Assembly: GCA_963767735.1 (NCBI GenBank)
Contig: CAVYES010000002.1
Location: 128,001-192,000 of the forward strand
Direction: 5' to 3'
Source: Candidatus Bathyarchaeota archaeon
Lineage (GTDB): Archaea > Thermoproteota > Bathyarchaeia > Bathyarchaeales > Bathycorpusculaceae
Length of the DNA: 64,000 nucleotides
A program made the translations under genes and the position numbers. Of the stretch, positions 1-19,231 are shown piece after piece. The notes under the pieces are model-generated. The model had not been told where the DNA came from, did no database searches, and saw only the letters and a program-made list of their open reading frames with translations. Within the stretch, counting starts at the first letter, position 1. Each line of letters begins with the position of its first letter.

Positions 1-1140
1 AAGTACGTTATACATGCGAAATTTGAAATTGAAGGTGTAGTTGAAAAACCTGATGTGATAGGCGCTGTTTTTGGTCAAACAGAAGGGCTTTTTGGACCTG
101 AACTTGACTTAAGAGAACTGCAGAAAACAGGCCGCATCGGCAGAATAGAAATAGAGTTGCATTCAAAAAATGATAAAACCACTGGTTTTATAACGATTCC
201 AACCAGCCTAGATCGGGTTTCAACAGCGCTGATTGCCGCAAGCATAGAGAGCATTAACCGTGTCGGTCCATGTTCAGCCAAAGTTTGCTTAGAAAAAATT
301 GAAGACATTCGGGAAGCACGCAGGAAAATAATCATCGATCGAGCAAAAGAAATCCTGCATAAATGGACTATTGAGTCGATGCCAAGCGTGGATGAAGTTT
401 ATAAAGAAATCTCTGAGACAATGAAAATCGGCAAAGTCGAAAAGTACGGTCCAGAAGACTTGCCCGCTGGTCCTGGATTAGACAGCGCAAAAGAAATCAT
501 CGTTGTTGAAGGACGCGCTGACATAATCAATCTGATGCGTTGCGGAATTTTCAACACCGTCGCTCTTGAAGGCGCCAAAGTTCCTGAGTCAATAAAGAAG
601 CTAACTAAAGAAAAAACAGCCACAGCCTTGCTGGATGGCGACCGAGGCGGCGATCTAATACTAAAAGAGTTACAACAGGTAACAAATGTCAAGTTTGTCG
701 GCCGCGCTCCAAGAGGCAAAGAAATCGAGGAATGCAACTGCAAAGAAATCGCCGAAGCCATAGAAAATAAGCTTCCAATAGCTGAAGCCTCTGGCAAACC
801 GCCTTCTAAAAAGCCTGAGCCGCCGCAGCGCATCAAAGTCGAAGTTCCAGAACCCGTCAGCAATGCAGCAAAAGCTTTGCTTGGCACCCTTGAAGCAGTC
901 TTGCTAAATGACAAGTTCGAGTTGATTGAGCGTTTGCCCGTAAGCCAATTAGCAGAAAAGCTCCAGCAAGTAACCGGCGTTGACACAGTGGTTTTCGATG
1001 GAATCATAACGCAGAGAATAGTTGATATCGCAGGCGATAAAAACATTAGACGCATAGTTGCTTCGAGAGTTTCAGAAGCGGTAAAGCCAGCCCTAAACGT
1101 TGAATTAGTAACATTCCAAGACGCAATCCCTCAAGCTTAA
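1..1140 (+). CDS. dnaG: Archaeal DnaG-like primase / exosome-associated TOPRIM protein (5' truncated by window edge)
   Basis: Frame open from base 1 (KYVIHAKFEIEGVVEKPDVIGAVFGQTEGL); LRELQKTGRIGRI; TOPRIM motifs VVEGRAD and LDGDRGG. Confidence 0.95.
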   Translation, partial: KYVIHAKFEIEGVVEKPDVIGAVFGQTEGLFGPELDLRELQKTGRIGRIEIELHSKNDKTTGFITIPTSLDRVSTALIAASIESINRVGPCSAKVCLEKIEDIREARRKIIIDRAKEILHKWTIESMPSVDEVYKEISETMKIGKVEKYGPEDLPAGPGLDSAKEIIVVEGRADIINLMRCGIFNTVALEGAKVPESIKKLTKEKTATALLDGDRGGDLILKELQQVTNVKFVGRAPRGKEIEECNCKEIAEAIENKLPIAEASGKPPSKKPEPPQRIKVEVPEPVSNAAKALLGTLEAVLLNDKFELIERLPVSQLAEKLQQVTGVDTVVFDGIITQRIVDIAGDKNIRRIVASRVSEAVKPALNVELVTFQDAIPQA

Positions 1141-6575: not shown

Positions 6576-7514
6576 CTAAAAATTACGTTTAATGTTAAGC
6601 TTAATGTCTTTAACTTCAGCAATGATAAGATAGGAAGCAGCTAACCCCCTCCATCTGCCCCACGACTCAGCGAGTCCCCGAGCCTCATCAGCGTTAATTG
6701 GTTTTCCACCGCAATAATACCTTGAAATAACCCGCCTGACGCCCAAATCATCAGCCGGCAGCGCATCCAGCTTTTGCATCCCCCTCAGCATAGTTAACTC
6801 AGCCGTCCAAACGCCAATCCCTCTAATTGCGTCAAGCTCAGAAATGATTTCCTCGGGGTTGCAGTTTTTTAGATGTTCAAGATCTAACTTGCCCTCTACT
6901 ATTAACTTGGCTGCTCCTTGGATGTACTGGGCTTTGCGCTGGCTTAATCCGCAGCTTTGAATTTCACTGATGCTTGTGTTCGCAATATTTTGATGGGTTG
7001 GATACGCGTAGAAGCTGTCGCCGTTTAGAAAGAGCGGTTCCCCAAACTTCTTGATTATCCTTTCCTCGAGGGCGTGTGCTACTTTGATGGAGATTTGTTG
7101 CTCAACAATTGAATCAATTAGGGCTTCGAAAACCGTTGGCGTAGTCGGGTTTTTAAGTCCATACAACAGTTGAGCTATTTGCTGCATTACATGGTCGTTT
7201 TTGAGGTCTCGGTAAAAAGAGCACAAATCGAAGTCCAAGTTGAAAATGAATTTGACTGTTTCTTCAGCTTTTTTCTTGTCCTGCACTGTGAGTGGATTGT
7301 TAGATTTCAACTCAACACTTATCTTCGGGTCCTCAACAGTTCCGAGGGAAGCCACTTTTAATTGGGCAAGTTTGTCATTGATGTAGACGACTTGGCTGAA
7401 TTGGCTGTTTGTGTAGTTTCGGATTTGTTTGTCGCCGCTGCAGGATATTTGAGCGGTTAAATCAAAGTTGAAAGGTGCTAAGGCTTGAACTGTAAAGGTT
7501 TCGGTGAACGTCAA
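6576..7514 (-). CDS. alkA: AlkA-like DNA-3-methyladenine glycosylase II (HhH-GPD)
   Basis: IVEQQIS, HhH motif LDAIRGIGVWTAE, catalytic LPADDLG. Confidence 0.88.
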   Translation of the reverse strand: MTFTETFTVQALAPFNFDLTAQISCSGDKQIRNYTNSQFSQVVYINDKLAQLKVASLGTVEDPKISVELKSNNPLTVQDKKKAEETVKFIFNLDFDLCSFYRDLKNDHVMQQIAQLLYGLKNPTTPTVFEALIDSIVEQQISIKVAHALEERIIKKFGEPLFLNGDSFYAYPTHQNIANTSISEIQSCGLSQRKAQYIQGAAKLIVEGKLDLEHLKNCNPEEIISELDAIRGIGVWTAELTMLRGMQKLDALPADDLGVRRVISRYYCGGKPINADEARGLAESWGRWRGLAASYLIIAEVKDIKLNIKRNF

Positions 7515-13985: not shown

Positions 13986-14435
13986 ATGAAGCGGTTATAC
14001 CCTGATCAGCCAGTTGTAGGCGTTGGCGCAGTAATAGTCGATAACGGCAAGATTGGGCTTATAAAACGAGGCAACGAACCCAGCAGAGGAAAATGGACAA
14101 TTCCAGGCGGCTTAGTTGAGCTTGCTGAAAGCCCCGAGCAGGCGGTTGTCCGAGAAGCCAAAGAGGAAACTGGTCTCGACGTTGAAAACCCAGTTTTAGT
14201 TGACGTGGTCAGCAATGTTGATTTGGATGAAAACGGCAAAGTCAAATACCATTATGTCATCATCGAATATTTTGTGCATGTAAAAGCAGGAACAGCTCAA
14301 GCTTTAAGCGACGCCGCGGAGCTACGTTGGGTTCCCTTCAGAGAAGTCGAAGATTACGATTTAACAAGGTCATTTAGACTTTTCTTCACCAACAATAGGG
14401 AAAAACTAGAAAAAGCAAACTCGTATAAACCTTAA
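13986..14435 (+). CDS. NUDIX hydrolase (ADP-ribose pyrophosphatase/MutT-like)
   Basis: Nudix box GGLVELAESPEQAVVREAKEETGL. Confidence 0.92.
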   Translation: MKRLYPDQPVVGVGAVIVDNGKIGLIKRGNEPSRGKWTIPGGLVELAESPEQAVVREAKEETGLDVENPVLVDVVSNVDLDENGKVKYHYVIIEYFVHVKAGTAQALSDAAELRWVPFREVEDYDLTRSFRLFFTNNREKLEKANSYKP

Positions 14436-14556: not shown

Positions 14557-15156
14557 TTGAATGAGGGAAAAATATTGACCGCAGACTATCTTTTCATAGT
14601 TAGGCATGGAGAAACCGAAGCTAACGAAAAAGGAATAGAGGCAGGCCCATTGGATTACCCCTTGACTAAGAGGGGCGTGAGAGGAGCGTTGTTCATCGCC
14701 AAGACCCTCTCGAAAGTAAAGATAAATGCCGTTTACAGCAGTCCAGTGTTTCGCGCCCACGAAACTGCAAAAATTCTGGCGCGCCCTCATAAGGTGAAGG
14801 TGAAAACTCTTGAGGAACTGACTGAAGCAAAAATCAAACCCGAATTCGTAGGCAAAAAGGGCCGACATCACATACTAACCACCCCTGAAGCCTTCACAGA
14901 GACAAACAATGATCTTCTAGAACGAACAAGTAAAGCCATCGAAATCATCAAAAAAGAAGCTGAAGGAAACGTGATTATGGTTTCCCACGGCGACGTGATA
15001 ACCGCTTTGCTTGAAGGTGTGGTCGAAAGAAAAGTCAGCACCGAGAAATACTACGTTCTCGACCCTTATCCCGCCGCACTAAGCATAGTTGAAATCAAAA
15101 ATAGACCGCAACTTATCCTATACAATTATCATCGTAAGATGTTCGCCGACTTCTAA
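14557..15156 (+). CDS. Histidine phosphatase family protein
   Basis: VRHGET, YSSP..RA.ETA, VSHG motifs. Confidence 0.9.
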   Translation: MNEGKILTADYLFIVRHGETEANEKGIEAGPLDYPLTKRGVRGALFIAKTLSKVKINAVYSSPVFRAHETAKILARPHKVKVKTLEELTEAKIKPEFVGKKGRHHILTTPEAFTETNNDLLERTSKAIEIIKKEAEGNVIMVSHGDVITALLEGVVERKVSTEKYYVLDPYPAALSIVEIKNRPQLILYNYHRKMFADF

Positions 15157-15195
15157 TTCTCGACTCTGATAGGTTTGCTGTAAAAAACAGTTAAA

Positions 15196-16581
15196 ATGGA
15201 GCAAACAACTTTAGTGAACATGGCTCAAGAAGTTCCTGACGATTTAAAGGATTTAATCGTGCGTTTTGTACGAATTTATAGCGGCGTCACTGATTTAGCG
15301 CTTGATCATTACCTGAATCCTAAACCGTGGTTTATGCCGCTGAACAGTATCTTGGCGAAAAGAGAAGCTGCCCACTATTTTTTGCTTGCCGCATCGCTTA
15401 GCGACAATAGGCTTACAGGAAACCCAAGAAACATCCGAATCCTGCTCTACCATCTTTACAGCAGACTCGGAGGCAAACTATACACCACAAAAATCCCAGT
15501 GGAATTCACAGGTGAAATTCGGAAATTTGAGCAGGACATAAAAAAGCTAGATCAACTGGGAGAAGCAAAGGATGAGATTCCAGAAATATTATCCTCAGTC
15601 AACCGATTCATAGAACAGAGAGCTCATGGCGACTTAATTGAATATACAACTATGCTGAGTCAAAAAGGAAACAAGCCCAAAGACTTTGTTGAGGAACTAA
15701 TGTATAAGGTAAAAAGAATGAATAAACACCATAAAGCAAAGTCTTGGCTGTATCTTCGTTGGATGACTCGAGGTCCACCTGACTTAGGGCTTTTCCCGTA
15801 TAACCCTAAAGATTTGATGGTGCCACTTAGCACGCCTAAATTCAGAGTTTACGCTTCTTTGGGTCTTAGTGATAACGAGAATTTACCTTTCCAATTAAAC
15901 GCCAAAAATAAACCGGAAAGCTGGTGGAACGGCACTGCAGAATTTGATGATGACGCAAACAGGTTAACTAGTTTTGCCCGCTCTCTTTTTCCCGATGATC
16001 CAGCCAAAGTAGATTTTCCCTTCTTTATCTTAGGTACCTGGCTCGAAAATTCTGACTTAACACCTGTTTCTTTAGAGAGGTCTCTGCGTTTTTTCATTCA
16101 GAAATATCAGGAATTGCTTCAGCCACTTATGCGATACTTAACTGTCGTTTCTCACTACAATAAAGCGGGCGAAGAATTTGAGCTTGGAGTGTTTACCGGG
16201 TTAGAAAAAAATGTTTATGATTTTTTAAAGAACAAACAAGTGACGTTTAACTACGAGTTTATGGAATTTCGCTTATCAAAAGAAAACCCAACAACAGACC
16301 GATCTCTAACCTACAAACCAGACTTTCTATTGCCGCAACTTACAGATAAAGGCAGAAAGATTTTGCTTGAACCCCACGGAGTCAAAAACAACCTCAAAGG
16401 ATTCCTATACAAGCTCTCAACATTCCGAAAACTCTACGGCGACTACTTCTGCCTCATCCTAGTTGTTCCAGACGATTTCATTGAGGCAATCGATAAGCTT
16501 GATCCGAAGCATTTGGCGTATGACTATATTTGGAAACAAAGCGAATACAAACGCAAATATGAAAAACTTCAAAATTCATAA
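15196..16581 (+). CDS. DUF2400/TIGR02757-like HhH domain fused to a C-terminal PD-(D/E)XK-type nuclease domain
   Basis: LYLRWMTR..PDLGL, VPLSTP.FRV..SLGL and FPDDPAKVDFPFFILG resemble DUF2400; C-terminal FNYE...YKPDFLL...ILLEPHG resembles a PD-(D/E)XK core. Confidence 0.7.
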   Translation: MEQTTLVNMAQEVPDDLKDLIVRFVRIYSGVTDLALDHYLNPKPWFMPLNSILAKREAAHYFLLAASLSDNRLTGNPRNIRILLYHLYSRLGGKLYTTKIPVEFTGEIRKFEQDIKKLDQLGEAKDEIPEILSSVNRFIEQRAHGDLIEYTTMLSQKGNKPKDFVEELMYKVKRMNKHHKAKSWLYLRWMTRGPPDLGLFPYNPKDLMVPLSTPKFRVYASLGLSDNENLPFQLNAKNKPESWWNGTAEFDDDANRLTSFARSLFPDDPAKVDFPFFILGTWLENSDLTPVSLERSLRFFIQKYQELLQPLMRYLTVVSHYNKAGEEFELGVFTGLEKNVYDFLKNKQVTFNYEFMEFRLSKENPTTDRSLTYKPDFLLPQLTDKGRKILLEPHGVKNNLKGFLYKLSTFRKLYGDYFCLILVVPDDFIEAIDKLDPKHLAYDYIWKQSEYKRKYEKLQNS

Positions 16582-16694: not shown

Positions 16695-18155
16695 TTAATT
16701 TATATCTTTAAAGAACAGCCGTGTCTCCCCCATTGTTTTGATGTCTAGGGCTCGGACGCGTGCTACAATAGGAAAGTCACTTACGACTTTGCCAAGTGTG
16801 AGGCAATGGTGGGGTGGCAGATCACGGGCGATCGAACGTACAGTTTCCGCATCCACGCGGGCAGCTCGGCTTACAACGTCTAAGTCGTGTTCGTTAGTGA
16901 AGTTGAAGAGAAAAATGTTGTCGGCTTGGCGATAAATCGTTTCTTGAATCGTGTCAGGCTGGTTCGTAATGAAGGTGGTGAATATGCCGAAGTGACGCAT
17001 ACGCGTTACGATGTCATCCCAGTAAGTCTCTCTTAGATAGAGATGAGCTTCTTCTGCGAAAAGAAATACTGCTTTCAGCTTCCAATTCGAGAGGGAATCA
17101 ACAAGTTTTCCAAGAGCGTATTCAACTACGATTTGTCGGTCGATGTTCGAGGTGTTTTTCAGGTTTATGACGATTGCGCCGCCTTGATCCTTGGCTTTCA
17201 AGATGCTTTCATCCAGCAATGTTGCTTCACCTGGAGCGTCGGTGAAGAAGCCTGAGTTAGCAAGGGAATGGAACCGTGAGGCTAACGCGTCGCGGACATG
17301 CTGGTTGCAGTTTAAATCGCGAATCGCCTCGCCTAGTTCCTGCATGTTCAATTTTCCTTTTTCCTTAAGCATCTTCCATATGCGACGGAACTCACGCGCT
17401 GAAGTCCCAGGCAAATGCAGTGCATTGACCAGTATGCCCATTACCGTGTTTAGGTGGAGCTGTTCGAGGGCTACTTTGAAGTTCTGCCCCGGAGTCAGGG
17501 TGTGAATTTTGTCGTAGTACATGTTTCTTTTGCCGTCATTACTCATGCCTAAGCTAGTGTATTCGCCGTTTAAGTCAAAAATGACGACAGTTGCCCTGTA
17601 ACCAACCAGGTTAACCATCAACAGCTTTGATAGATGGGATTTGCCGCAGCCTTTCTTGCCCGTTATGATATTTAACGTTCCATCTATTGCTGAAGCATCA
17701 ATCGTTAAAAGCGATGAGTCTTTGGTGCCGCCCAAAATTATGGGAAGTTTACCATCAACCTTTGCCAGTTTCATAAGCATGGGAATGGACAGTTTTTTGA
17801 TGGTTGATTGCGAACGGCTTGGAAGCCAACTGCTGCTTGGACTAAGCACTCCATTTTCCAACGTTGCCCTAATCTTGCAAATCAGCAAGCTAGCGTCTTG
17901 GATGTAAGTTATGTGGGGAGCGATTTCCATGGGGTCAATGTCTTCGCCCTGCAAGGGTTCGCCACCGTCCGGAAGAGTCCGCAAAAGCTCCTCAAGCACT
18001 CCGGGAACCGCTGCAAACTGAACATCGATGACCTGCGCAATCAAGGCTTTGGCGGCGTCTTGGTCTTCGACGAGTAGGTAGTCGCCTTTTTCAGCGCTCT
18101 CCGTTGGGAAACTGATGATTTGCAGCATGTTGCCTTCTTTTCTGTAGAGTTTCAT
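16695..18155 (-). CDS. herA: HerA-family ATPase/helicase
   Basis: N-terminal HAS-barrel-like region, Walker A GKKGCGKS, DLNGEY, Walker B FAEEAH, RMRHFG, ITNQP. Confidence 0.88.
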   Translation of the reverse strand: MKLYRKEGNMLQIISFPTESAEKGDYLLVEDQDAAKALIAQVIDVQFAAVPGVLEELLRTLPDGGEPLQGEDIDPMEIAPHITYIQDASLLICKIRATLENGVLSPSSSWLPSRSQSTIKKLSIPMLMKLAKVDGKLPIILGGTKDSSLLTIDASAIDGTLNIITGKKGCGKSHLSKLLMVNLVGYRATVVIFDLNGEYTSLGMSNDGKRNMYYDKIHTLTPGQNFKVALEQLHLNTVMGILVNALHLPGTSAREFRRIWKMLKEKGKLNMQELGEAIRDLNCNQHVRDALASRFHSLANSGFFTDAPGEATLLDESILKAKDQGGAIVINLKNTSNIDRQIVVEYALGKLVDSLSNWKLKAVFLFAEEAHLYLRETYWDDIVTRMRHFGIFTTFITNQPDTIQETIYRQADNIFLFNFTNEHDLDVVSRAARVDAETVRSIARDLPPHHCLTLGKVVSDFPIVARVRALDIKTMGETRLFFKDIN

Positions 18156-19231
18156 GCGTAGATTTCCCCCGAGCCGAACGGACCAAAAAGCAGCCGATGC
18201 ATGTCTGGGCGGTTTATCATTTGTATGCCGTGTTTGCGTGTGATGAAGTGTTTGATGGCTAAGACTTCGTTAGCGGTGAAGGTACAGAGGATATGTGATA
18301 ACCTCAAAGTTTCAGGGTAGCTTTGCTTGTAGAGATCGTTACCGATTAACTTCTGCAAAGCAGCCATTCTCTGCTCTGACGGGGTTTCTTTATCAATATC
18401 TAAACGAAACGCAAAATTTGCCTTGTTTAAACGCGCAACATAAACATCGCCCAGCAGCGTTATCGGCGGTTTAAAATGTACACCTGTGGTTTCAAGCAGG
18501 TAGGGCGGGTCATGGTTTGGCAGCTGCTCAGTTATCAGGATGCCGTTAGCTCTAAGAGTTGTTGCTTTTGAGAATGCAAGAACGGTGCTGTCGTTTCTTC
18601 TTGCATAACCCAGAATTTCCCTGAGGCGCTGAACAGGTGTATCGATTGTGCCAGAGATTAAGGAGCCGTCAAAGAGGATTACGCCATGGCTCACGGTTTT
18701 GGCAAGCATAGTTTGCAGCCACCTCTCCAATAAGCCGGCAAGTCGCATGGGCATCTGCATGATGTTTGGGGCGGCTTGGTGGCTGGCTCCATAGCTGGTG
18801 CTGAAATAAGCGTGTTCCAGCGTATTGTAGAGAGCGTTTTTGTTTTCCTCTGTTATGTGGAATATGAATGGCCCGAGGCGCGTGTACTTGTAGCTTTGGT
18901 TTTGGCGCCACGTGGTTGCTCCCCTGATGGCCACGATTATGCCGGTGCTTGTTTCGCCTATTTTTATGGTTGAGGTGTCTATGGCGGCGATTAGGGTTTC
19001 TTGGTGGTCTGGTTTTATGGGGATTGATTGTGGTTTTAGTTGTATGCTGGAGGGGTATTGTTCGGTTACGCTGAATTGTTGCAGGTTTTGGGGGTTTAGT
19101 TGGAAGGGTTGGTGCTGGACTTGTTTTAGGGAGTGGAGGCTTTGTTCTAGGAAGCGTTGTGGGAGTGTTGTGTCGATGGTTGGTTGTGGAAAGTTATATT
19201 TGTCAGTAATTGTATATTGTTCAATCACCAT
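18152..19231 (-). CDS. nurA: NurA-family 5'-3' nuclease
   Basis: AAIDTS, LFDGSL, AFSK, YPETLRLSH motifs; 4-nt overlap with herA. Confidence 0.85.
   Translation of the reverse strand: MVIEQYTITDKYNFPQPTIDTTLPQRFLEQSLHSLKQVQHQPFQLNPQNLQQFSVTEQYPSSIQLKPQSIPIKPDHQETLIAAIDTSTIKIGETSTGIIVAIRGATTWRQNQSYKYTRLGPFIFHITEENKNALYNTLEHAYFSTSYGASHQAAPNIMQMPMRLAGLLERWLQTMLAKTVSHGVILFDGSLISGTIDTPVQRLREILGYARRNDSTVLAFSKATTLRANGILITEQLPNHDPPYLLETTGVHFKPPITLLGDVYVARLNKANFAFRLDIDKETPSEQRMAALQKLIGNDLYKQSYPETLRLSHILCTFTANEVLAIKHFITRKHGIQMINRPDMHRLLFGPFGSGEIYA

Follow-up and report, generated by a model that had tools for sequence, protein, structure and literature searches.

We analysed a 64,000-nucleotide stretch of DNA from a Candidatus Bathyarchaeota archaeon (contig CAVYES010000002.1; hereafter the window, to whose positions the gene coordinates refer) and found that one of its genes (Table 1) combines an N-terminal DUF2400 domain, predicted to adopt the fold of the helix-hairpin-helix HhH-GPD DNA glycosylases, with a C-terminal domain that profile and model comparisons assign to the PD-(D/E)XK nucleases. 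The N-terminal domain carries Ser at the position of the glycosylase catalytic Asp, the nuclease motif carries His at the position of the usual Lys, and both substitutions recur in a single clade of fused proteins. Our preferred reading, to which we give about an even chance, is that the gene encodes a two-domain endonuclease in which a non-excising reader of a base or an abasic site directs the nuclease.

The N-terminal part matches Pfam family PF09674 (DUF2400) over residues 109–229 with an E-value of 2.3e-8 and 34.8 bits against a gathering cut-off of 25 (36.6 bits in the genome-level search, which adds neighbouring same-frame stretches), and a preliminary description made from the sequence had likewise called it DUF2400-like, on motifs that are all present in the translation. 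The protein misses the equivalog cut-off of TIGR02757 (37.2 bits against 139.2) and has no match to PF00730 (HhH-GPD) at E-values up to 0.1, and a PDB sequence search returned nothing for the N-terminal domain at E-values up to 10, either with the single protein or with a profile. The profiles and alignments were A1 (28 close homologues, down to 45% identity), A3 (64 sequences, full length; the profile in the search just mentioned), A5 (a DUF2400 superfamily profile of 28 sequences including 8 bacterial ones) and A4 (15 EndoIII-like proteins from this genome and its relatives), together with A2 for the nuclease domain (see below).

The AlphaFold2 model built on A3 (pLDDT 92.2, pTM 0.90) is all-helical to about residue 307, has no strand before residue 312, and continues as an alpha/beta domain. 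Qng1/DUF2419, the queuosine-5'-phosphate N-glycosylase of queuine salvage, was the best PDB match of the whole model in Foldseek (7u07_B, E-value 8.3e-4). When the top 997 Foldseek chains were re-aligned with VIA-align to obtain Z values for the whole model, this chain covered model residues 10–289 with a Z value of 17.3 (251 aligned residues, root mean square deviation 3.6), and the DNA glycosylases MjOgg (two entries), SsOgg and Tm1821 covered residues 16–282 with Z values of 14.4–15.3 (for the MjOgg chain 3knt_D, 15.3, with 195 aligned residues and a root mean square deviation of 3.3); NTHL1 (13.2), MutY (12.5), EndoIII, AGOG and thymine glycosylase (11.4–11.9) and OGG1 (10–11) scored lower. 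An hhalign comparison of A5 with the EndoIII-like alignment A4 gave a probability of 94.7% and an E-value of 5.8e-8 over 180 columns. Predicted structure and profile comparison thus support an HhH-GPD glycosylase fold for this domain, i.e. a two-lobed helical domain with a central helix-hairpin-helix; as the model places no strands in the N-terminal domain, beta-hairpin insertions of the Qng1 type appear to be absent.

R188, W189, R192, D196, P210, D268, P269 and D273 are invariant in A5, even in comparison with its bacterial members, so that the N-terminal domain seems to be still under family constraints. D268, which is invariant in 64 of 64 sequences of A3, belongs to the DDPAKVDFPFFILG motif, and this motif is possibly part of the base pocket. 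The protein atlas holds three Bathyarchaeota DUF2400 clusters and no more. We note that two DUF2400 relatives that keep the Asp region, P0158 and P0160, bear an N-terminal DUF6884 (E-values of 6.6e-6 and 3.3e-7, respectively), which shows that the DUF2400 family is fused to other modules too.

For the C-terminal domain, single-sequence comparisons give weak hints of T7 endonuclease I (15.9 bits with Pfam PF05367, under the cut-off of 29.1, and a phmmer E-value of 0.28) and of a PHROG "endonuclease" family (E-value 0.0011); the best stand-alone relative, P0230, reaches 24.3 bits with PF05367, under the same cut-off. Profile A2 contains the C-terminal domain and its stand-alone relatives (16 sequences) drawn from a library of 1.84 billion proteins, and searched against the PDB it found only T7 endonuclease I, in 4 distinct sequences with E-values from 8.5e-8 (1m0d) to 4.9e-7; the full-length profile A3 found the same four. 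The alignment of A2 with these structures sets His394 on Lys67 of T7 endonuclease I. The domain occurs in 151 proteins, 135 of which have EPH as the last motif, 2 ETH, and 1 each ESH, ECH and EAK; in 11 the motif was not located. The one relative with the canonical Lys, the stand-alone P0227 (IEAKG), supports the equivalence of His and Lys at residue 394.

At the level of the fold, the nuclease part of the whole model matched the nuclease domain of Can2 (VIA Z 9.3, 133 aligned residues), VC1899 (8.8) and Bax1 (8.0). Folded alone (pLDDT 89.0) and searched against 48,161 representative chains, the domain matched Can2 (8.7), Bax1 (8.5), VC1899 (8.2) and PspGI (8.0), and most of the top 18 rows were nucleases of the PD-(D/E)XK fold. 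As these Z values are middling, the family assignment is carried by the sequence-profile result. T7 endonuclease I itself was outside the 50 best fold rows for the C-terminal model, which is uninformative because its chains are, as we take it, domain-swapped; a two-copy homodimer prediction for residues 305–461 scored 0.01 against a mark of 0.42 and says nothing either way. By profile and predicted fold, then, the C-terminal part belongs with the PD-(D/E)XK nucleases, in the lineage of T7 endonuclease I and with His at the Lys position, which bears out the restriction-endonuclease-type core with that same exchange that had been read from the sequence. The metal ligands and the invariant His394 are kept, and this speaks for the predicted nuclease activity.

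The catalytic Asp was located by the same A5–A4 comparison, which sets the P-L-D-x-N/H column of the DUF2400 superfamily on the Asp of the EndoIII motif I-x-V-D-T-H; two single-sequence hhalign comparisons also put position 212 on the VDTH Asp, weakly (E-value about 0.012). Stand-alone relatives have P[LV]DTH or PLDxN here (P[LV]DTH in 13 out of 13 bacterial DUF2400 open reading frames, L043–L055, in agreement with the family motif PLDTH named in the preliminary description), and the window protein has PLSTP. We located the motif in 168 of 239 gathered proteins and searched these proteins for the nuclease domain with a hidden Markov model made from A2 (E-value of at most 1e-3). Asp is found in 36 proteins, 0 of which have a C-terminal nuclease domain, and Thr (118), Ser (10), Asn (3) or Pro (1) in the other 132, 115 of which have it; the 17 Asp-less proteins without the domain are short pieces of 75–360 residues. 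The fused clade, with Ser or Thr almost throughout, also loses the neighbouring His or Asn (PLTTP instead of PLDTH or PLDxN).

According to extracts of the Qng1 study (PMC9881137), Qng1 and the HhH glycosylases have only two invariant residues in common, the Lys of the helix-hairpin-helix and this Asp, and catalysis depends critically on both. The EndoIII catalytic Lys falls on hhalign column 181, beside a 12-column gap, which places K182 of the window protein at the HhH Lys position or one column off. K182 is retained in 28 out of 28 close homologues. The preliminary description had spoken of a disarmed base-flipping domain; the replaced Asp agrees with that wording, but with the Lys kept, the disarming is something we infer and not something demonstrated.

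The fusion recurs within Bathyarchaeia. A protein search returned 172 proteins at an E-value of at most 0.001, most of the best 120 covering 97–100% of the query at 45–100% identity, and the available source names among the listed homologues are Bathyarchaeia. A locus scan with one genome per species gave 55 loci, 42 of which (L001–L042) hold the whole gene at 38–82% identity; the other 13 are the bacterial stand-alone DUF2400 genes. By title, 39 of the 42 are Bathyarchaeota or Bathyarchaeia, 1 is an "uncultured archaeon" and 2 are bacterial bins. The latter two, L021 and L023, carry full-length homologues at 60–64% identity and are filed as Acidoferrum and Sulfotelmatobacter; they probably come from archaea and were assigned to the wrong bins. 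Outside the genus, matches occur in 32 of 301 genomes sampled from the class (near-full-length in two families, f1 and f19) and in 22 of 401 genomes of the phylum sample (near-full-length only in f1). An assembly chimera is ruled out by the 42 whole-gene loci, the near-full-length homologues and the genus-wide matches.

When a maximum likelihood tree was built by quick search from 69 rows of the N-terminal domain only, with the bacterial group as root, all 43 fused proteins formed one clade with a support of 99 (Shimodaira–Hasegawa-like approximate likelihood ratio test, SH-aLRT), nested among stand-alone proteins that keep the Asp. Loss of the Asp and gain of the nuclease are therefore linked by a single event, not by repeated correlation. 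These results fit what the preliminary description had expected: DUF2400 proteins are usually stand-alone, the fusion together with the Asp change occurs in other archaea (42 loci, and Thr, Ser, Asn or Pro in 132 proteins), the C-terminus models as PD-(D/E)XK, and the N-terminus as HhH/DUF2400.

The same genome encodes a second, 416-residue copy (located at G000:C4:559010-560146, within G000:C4:559004-560254, which corresponds to 1495-2745 on the + strand of locus L057) that is 36% identical to the window protein and has the motifs PLTKEN, YTPDF and LEPHF. We refer to the window's copy as type A and to this one as type B; the two types form separate clades, with a support of 99 each. Within the genus, 114 of 120 genomes and 73 of 73 high-quality genomes have a match, and type B-like rows (33–42% identity), few of them with stops, account for nearly all genus genomes. 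Type A-like sequences (at least 55% identity, counted among the matches listed) are found in at least 37 of the 120 genomes, of which 24 have an intact full-length gene (the window's included), 4 a gene with one internal stop, 8 a split or truncated gene and 1 a remnant. Type B is intact in several of these genomes; some of the type A stops may be assembly errors. We read the window's copy as an accessory, dispensable paralog of the genus-wide type B, perhaps with a different specificity.

Under our preferred reading, the N-terminal domain would bind DNA through its helix-hairpin-helix and, lacking the Asp, would hold but not remove either an abasic site or an aberrant or modified base that has been flipped out, and the C-terminal metal-dependent nuclease (E337, D376, E392 and H394) would cut the backbone near the bound site. 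A natural analogy is Mag2 of S. pombe, described in extracts of PMC4433238 as a paralog of glycosylases that has no catalytic activity, binds DNA and may shield abasic sites; as reported for Mag2, an Asp-less fold should hold the flipped nucleotide rather than excise it. For the family as a whole, genome maintenance by glycosylase-independent incision is more likely than antiviral defence, because type B is near-universal in the genus and no defence context was found. Defence and repair had been offered side by side in the preliminary description. The defence half comes out weaker (no PADLOC match, housekeeping neighbours, near-universal type B), and the patchy type A fits defence too.

Several observations weigh against the two-domain endonuclease just outlined. 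We found no measured activity for any DUF2400 protein in the open-access literature. The best fold match of the N-terminal domain, Qng1, acts on a free nucleotide and not on DNA, and T7 endonuclease I recognises branched DNA, not lesions ("HJC resolvase" in PMC3424549). The nuclease motif has His for Lys, which could weaken or alter catalysis, and with K182 kept, some lyase or glycosylase chemistry may persist. Asp loss and fusion are tied together by one evolutionary event and not by a statistical correlation, and no conserved partner gene gives functional context at the 42 type A and 18 type B loci. Lastly, type A is patchy (at least 37 of 120 genomes, 13 of these with a broken, split or remnant gene). 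Such patchiness would suit a redundant repair paralog no less than a gene that is accessory or serves defence, and the decay of type A is compatible with a part in defence or with a specificity that is redundant.

A modification-dependent (type IV-like) restriction enzyme, in which the glycosylase domain, no longer catalytic, would recognise modified bases of invading viral DNA and a dimeric nuclease would break both strands, is rather unlikely in our judgement. The reader-plus-nuclease architecture matches that enzyme class; type A is accessory, patchy and often broken while type B is mostly intact in the same genomes; and the type A neighbourhood differs even between homologues that are 70–82% identical. 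A 7-deazaguanine derivative is a possible target in view of the likeness to Qng1, which binds a 7-deazaguanine nucleotide. A QueT gene lies within 1–3 genes of type A in 4 of the 42 loci, and an Mrr-type nuclease gene (an ATP-cone/Mrr protein) is nearby in 4. No PADLOC model matches the protein, however (0 families), the recurrent type A neighbours are mostly housekeeping genes (hydrogenase subunits, a response regulator, TFIIB, and also methyltransferase and aCPSF-like genes), and no methyltransferase or immunity partner is conserved. Type B has the same catalytic make-up but is near-universal in the genus and adjoins SecY and ribosomal genes (SecY and L15) in 4 of 18 loci. The QueT linkage concerns 4 related loci only and may be plain synteny. 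A division of labour, with type A restricting viral DNA that carries modified purines and type B doing housekeeping incision repair, would make the fused proteins a new class of base-reading endonuclease, and we regard it as improbable; 7-deazaguanine derivatives would be its lead, because Qng1 is the nearest structural relative and QueT is sometimes adjacent.

Some hOGG1 mutants in the catalytic Asp keep partial activity, and 1n3c, which we take to be an entry on that residue, is among the fold matches of the model. Along with the invariant K182, at or next to the EndoIII Lys column, and the invariant D268 and D273, this is what a still-active base-excision module can claim, one in which Lys182 and another acid would do the glycosylase or abasic-site lyase chemistry and the nuclease would process the product. 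We consider it about as improbable as the division of labour, for the fused clade has another residue in place of the Asp in 132 of 132 readable cases, the His or Asn beside it has gone as well, and this Asp is critical for catalysis according to the extracts of PMC9881137 mentioned above.

Tandem helix-hairpin-helix motifs, (HhH)2, serve as a DNA clamp in nucleases of the XPF/Mus81 type, and the HhH domain could likewise be merely a clamp for a T7-like cutter of junctions, flaps or branches. The only solved sequence relatives of the nuclease domain are indeed those of the junction-resolving T7 endonuclease I, whose family is listed as a resolvase (PMC3424549). Nevertheless, the genome already has an Hjc, which passes the cut-off with 51.8 bits, the N-terminal 300 residues make up an entire glycosylase fold with conserved pocket-side motifs and not a minimal HhH pair, and a clamp does not explain why the catalytic Asp went missing together with the fusion; this makes a structure-specific nuclease quite improbable. 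We give the least credence, very little indeed, to a ligand-gated nuclease, in which the Qng1-like pocket would bind a free nucleotide or nucleoside signal unhydrolysed and switch the nuclease on, comparable to CARF in Can2 and Card1. In its favour, the enzyme that the N-terminal domain matches best binds a nucleotide (Z 17.3), and the best fold matches of the C-terminal domain are the nuclease domains of Can2, VC1899 and Cdn1 (Z 7.5–9.3), but the latter values are middling, the sequence relative of the nuclease is T7 endonuclease I and not Can2, the beta-hairpins that enclose the ligand in Qng1 are absent, and no signal-making enzyme is conserved nearby.

Table 1. The fused gene, its predicted domains and motifs, and neighbouring genes in the window.
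Feature	Residues	Positions	Strand	Basis or remarks
Whole open reading frame, type A copy	461 and stop	15196..16581	+	uninterrupted
N-terminal all-helical DUF2400 / HhH-GPD-fold domain (predicted)	about 10-307	15223..16116	+	Pfam, AlphaFold2 model, VIA, hhalign
Lys182	182	15739..15741	+	second helix of helix-hairpin-helix; invariant in A1
WLYLRWMTR	184-192			translation
DLGL	196-199			translation
PLSTP	210-214	15823..15837	+	Ser212 at HhH-GPD catalytic-Asp position; hhalign, relatives' motifs
DDPAKVDFPFFILG	267-280	15994..16035	+	most conserved motif across DUF2400 superfamily
C-terminal alpha/beta PD-(D/E)XK nuclease domain (predicted)	about 312-461	16129..16578	+	profile A2, fold matches
Glu337	337	16204..16206	+	first acidic residue, on Glu of T7 'GLE'; invariant in A1
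FNYE	351-354			translation
YKPDFLL	373-379			translation
Pro375-Asp376-Phe377	375-377	16318..16326	+	'PD' motif; invariant in A1
ILLEPHG	389-395			translation
Glu392-Pro393-His394-Gly395	392-395	16369..16380	+	'(D/E)XK' with His for Lys; on T7 E-T-K-G; invariant in A1
AlkA-like gene	312	6576..7514	-	GIGVWTA (Trp at Lys position); PF00730, 63 bits
Nudix hydrolase gene		13986..14435	+	upstream, same strand; PF00293, E 8e-21
Histidine phosphatase gene		14557..15156	+	upstream, same strand; PF00300, E 9.8e-32; ends 40 nucleotides before the start of the fused gene
HerA-type ATPase gene		16695..18155	-	convergent; PF01935, E 7.7e-15; best PADLOC model mad8, E 9.1e-17
NurA-like gene		18152..19231	-	convergent; PF09376, E 0.0015, below cut-off; overlaps HerA gene by 4 nucleotides

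With respect to the gene itself (Table 1), most homologues begin at the residue aligned with Met9 of the window protein, and translation may therefore start at the ATG at position 15220. Its G+C content is 0.39–0.43, that of the convergent downstream genes 0.45–0.51 and that of the upstream ABC transporter 0.47–0.48 (a small dip, left uninterpreted). Metatranscriptome contigs from three runs (95–99% alike) span 15184–15392, 15454–15716 and 15886–16054 of the gene region and hint weakly that the type A gene is transcribed; the sampled-word shares are small (0.05–0.10), near relatives are the source of the contigs, and some DNA may have been carried over.

Neighbour clustering and Pfam annotation of the 42 type A and 18 type B loci showed no consistent partner, and the neighbours of the bacterial DUF2400 genes were equally uninformative. 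The genes flanking the window's copy (Nudix hydrolase, histidine phosphatase, HerA and NurA-like) occur within about 6 kb of the homologue in 0 of the 42 loci. The HerA-type ATPase also matches several anti-phage HerA models of PADLOC; it has a NurA-like companion, with neither Mre11 nor Rad50 beside them, and the two could work together in repair or in defence. An AlkA-like HhH-GPD glycosylase gene lies within 1–4 genes of type A in 10 of the 42 loci, which may reflect plain synteny or a functional link; the window contains such a gene as well (Table 1). The QueT genes, for transporters of queuosine precursors (PF06177, E-value 2.5e-30), are those of L001 (1820-2329, - strand), L003, L004 and L018. 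Downstream of type B, on the same strand, 8 of 18 loci have an open reading frame of 122–125 residues with the HExxH-like motif HEFYHH and no Pfam match, and in 7 of these 8 a Prok-JAB gene (PF14464) is close by on the opposite strand; a metalloprotease-like small protein and a JAB domain beside a putative DNA-binding pseudo-enzyme may deserve a look. Elsewhere in its genome, the window's archaeon has NucS as a separate gene and three PF00730 HhH-GPD genes; AGOG (PF09171) had no match there, and none in the control genomes either, so this search is uninformative.

Reader-nuclease fusions and pseudo-glycosylases are known already, each separately. What is new is the combination of an Asp-less HhH-GPD domain with a His-variant T7-endonuclease-I-like nuclease, as predicted for a conserved clade in Bathyarchaeia: in open-access full text we found no report of an HhH-GPD fold as the reader in a nuclease and no description of DUF2400 function or of a DUF2400-nuclease fusion (supplements were outside this search), and the word "glycosylase" is absent from the main text of the 2012 survey of PD-(D/E)XK proteins (PMC3424549). 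The profile and model comparisons place the uncharacterised DUF2400 family firmly in the HhH-GPD superfamily and reveal a branch that lost the catalytic Asp when it acquired a nuclease. If the proposed activity holds, this branch would either open a route to incision that needs no glycosylase or provide restriction with a new reader, in abundant uncultured archaea for which lists of genes are nearly all that is known of DNA repair, and nicking at a defined lesion or modified base would make the protein a useful mapping reagent. It is also a natural candidate for a glycosylase fold that only reads, and it presents the active site of T7 endonuclease I with His in place of Lys.

Among known systems, stand-alone DUF2400/TIGR02757 proteins share with the window protein the PF09674 match and the motifs WxYxRWMxR..PDL and DPxxxDxPxF; they are about 215–350 residues long and keep the Asp, whereas the window protein has PLSTP and a nuclease domain of 150 residues. 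The HhH-GPD glycosylases (EndoIII/Nth, Ogg2, hOGG1, AGOG and MutY) have the same predicted fold (Z 10–15) and a Lys near the HhH position, and differ in that the window protein has Ser or, in relatives, Thr for the Asp, no iron-sulphur cluster motif, and a fused nuclease. In Mag2 the Asp is presumably replaced as well. Like the proposed reader, Mag2 has a glycosylase fold that does not excise and still binds DNA or abasic sites, as far as extracts of PMC4433238 describe it; unlike the window protein, it is eukaryotic, belongs to the AlkA/Mag subfamily and has no nuclease domain. Qng1 is 11–12% identical to the window protein and has a similar spacing from Lys to Asp (32 residues, K199–D231, against 30, K182–S212), with no acidic equivalent of its Asp231 in the window protein; it is a single-domain enzyme acting on a free nucleotide, and its beta-hairpin insertions, which set it apart from DNA glycosylases in extracts of PMC9881137 (the source also of the Qng1 residue numbers), are missing from the two-domain window protein. 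T7 endonuclease I (PF05367; 1m0d, 2pfj, 3cae and 1fzr) aligns with the window protein at its active-site Glu, Pro-Asp and Glu, but is a stand-alone junction resolvase with Lys67 where the fusion has His394. In its logic of a recognition module joined to a phosphodiesterase, the window protein as predicted resembles type IV enzymes of the SRA and EVE types, archaeal EndoMS/NucS, EndoV and EndoQ, in all of which a module that recognises a base or lesion is combined with backbone cleavage.

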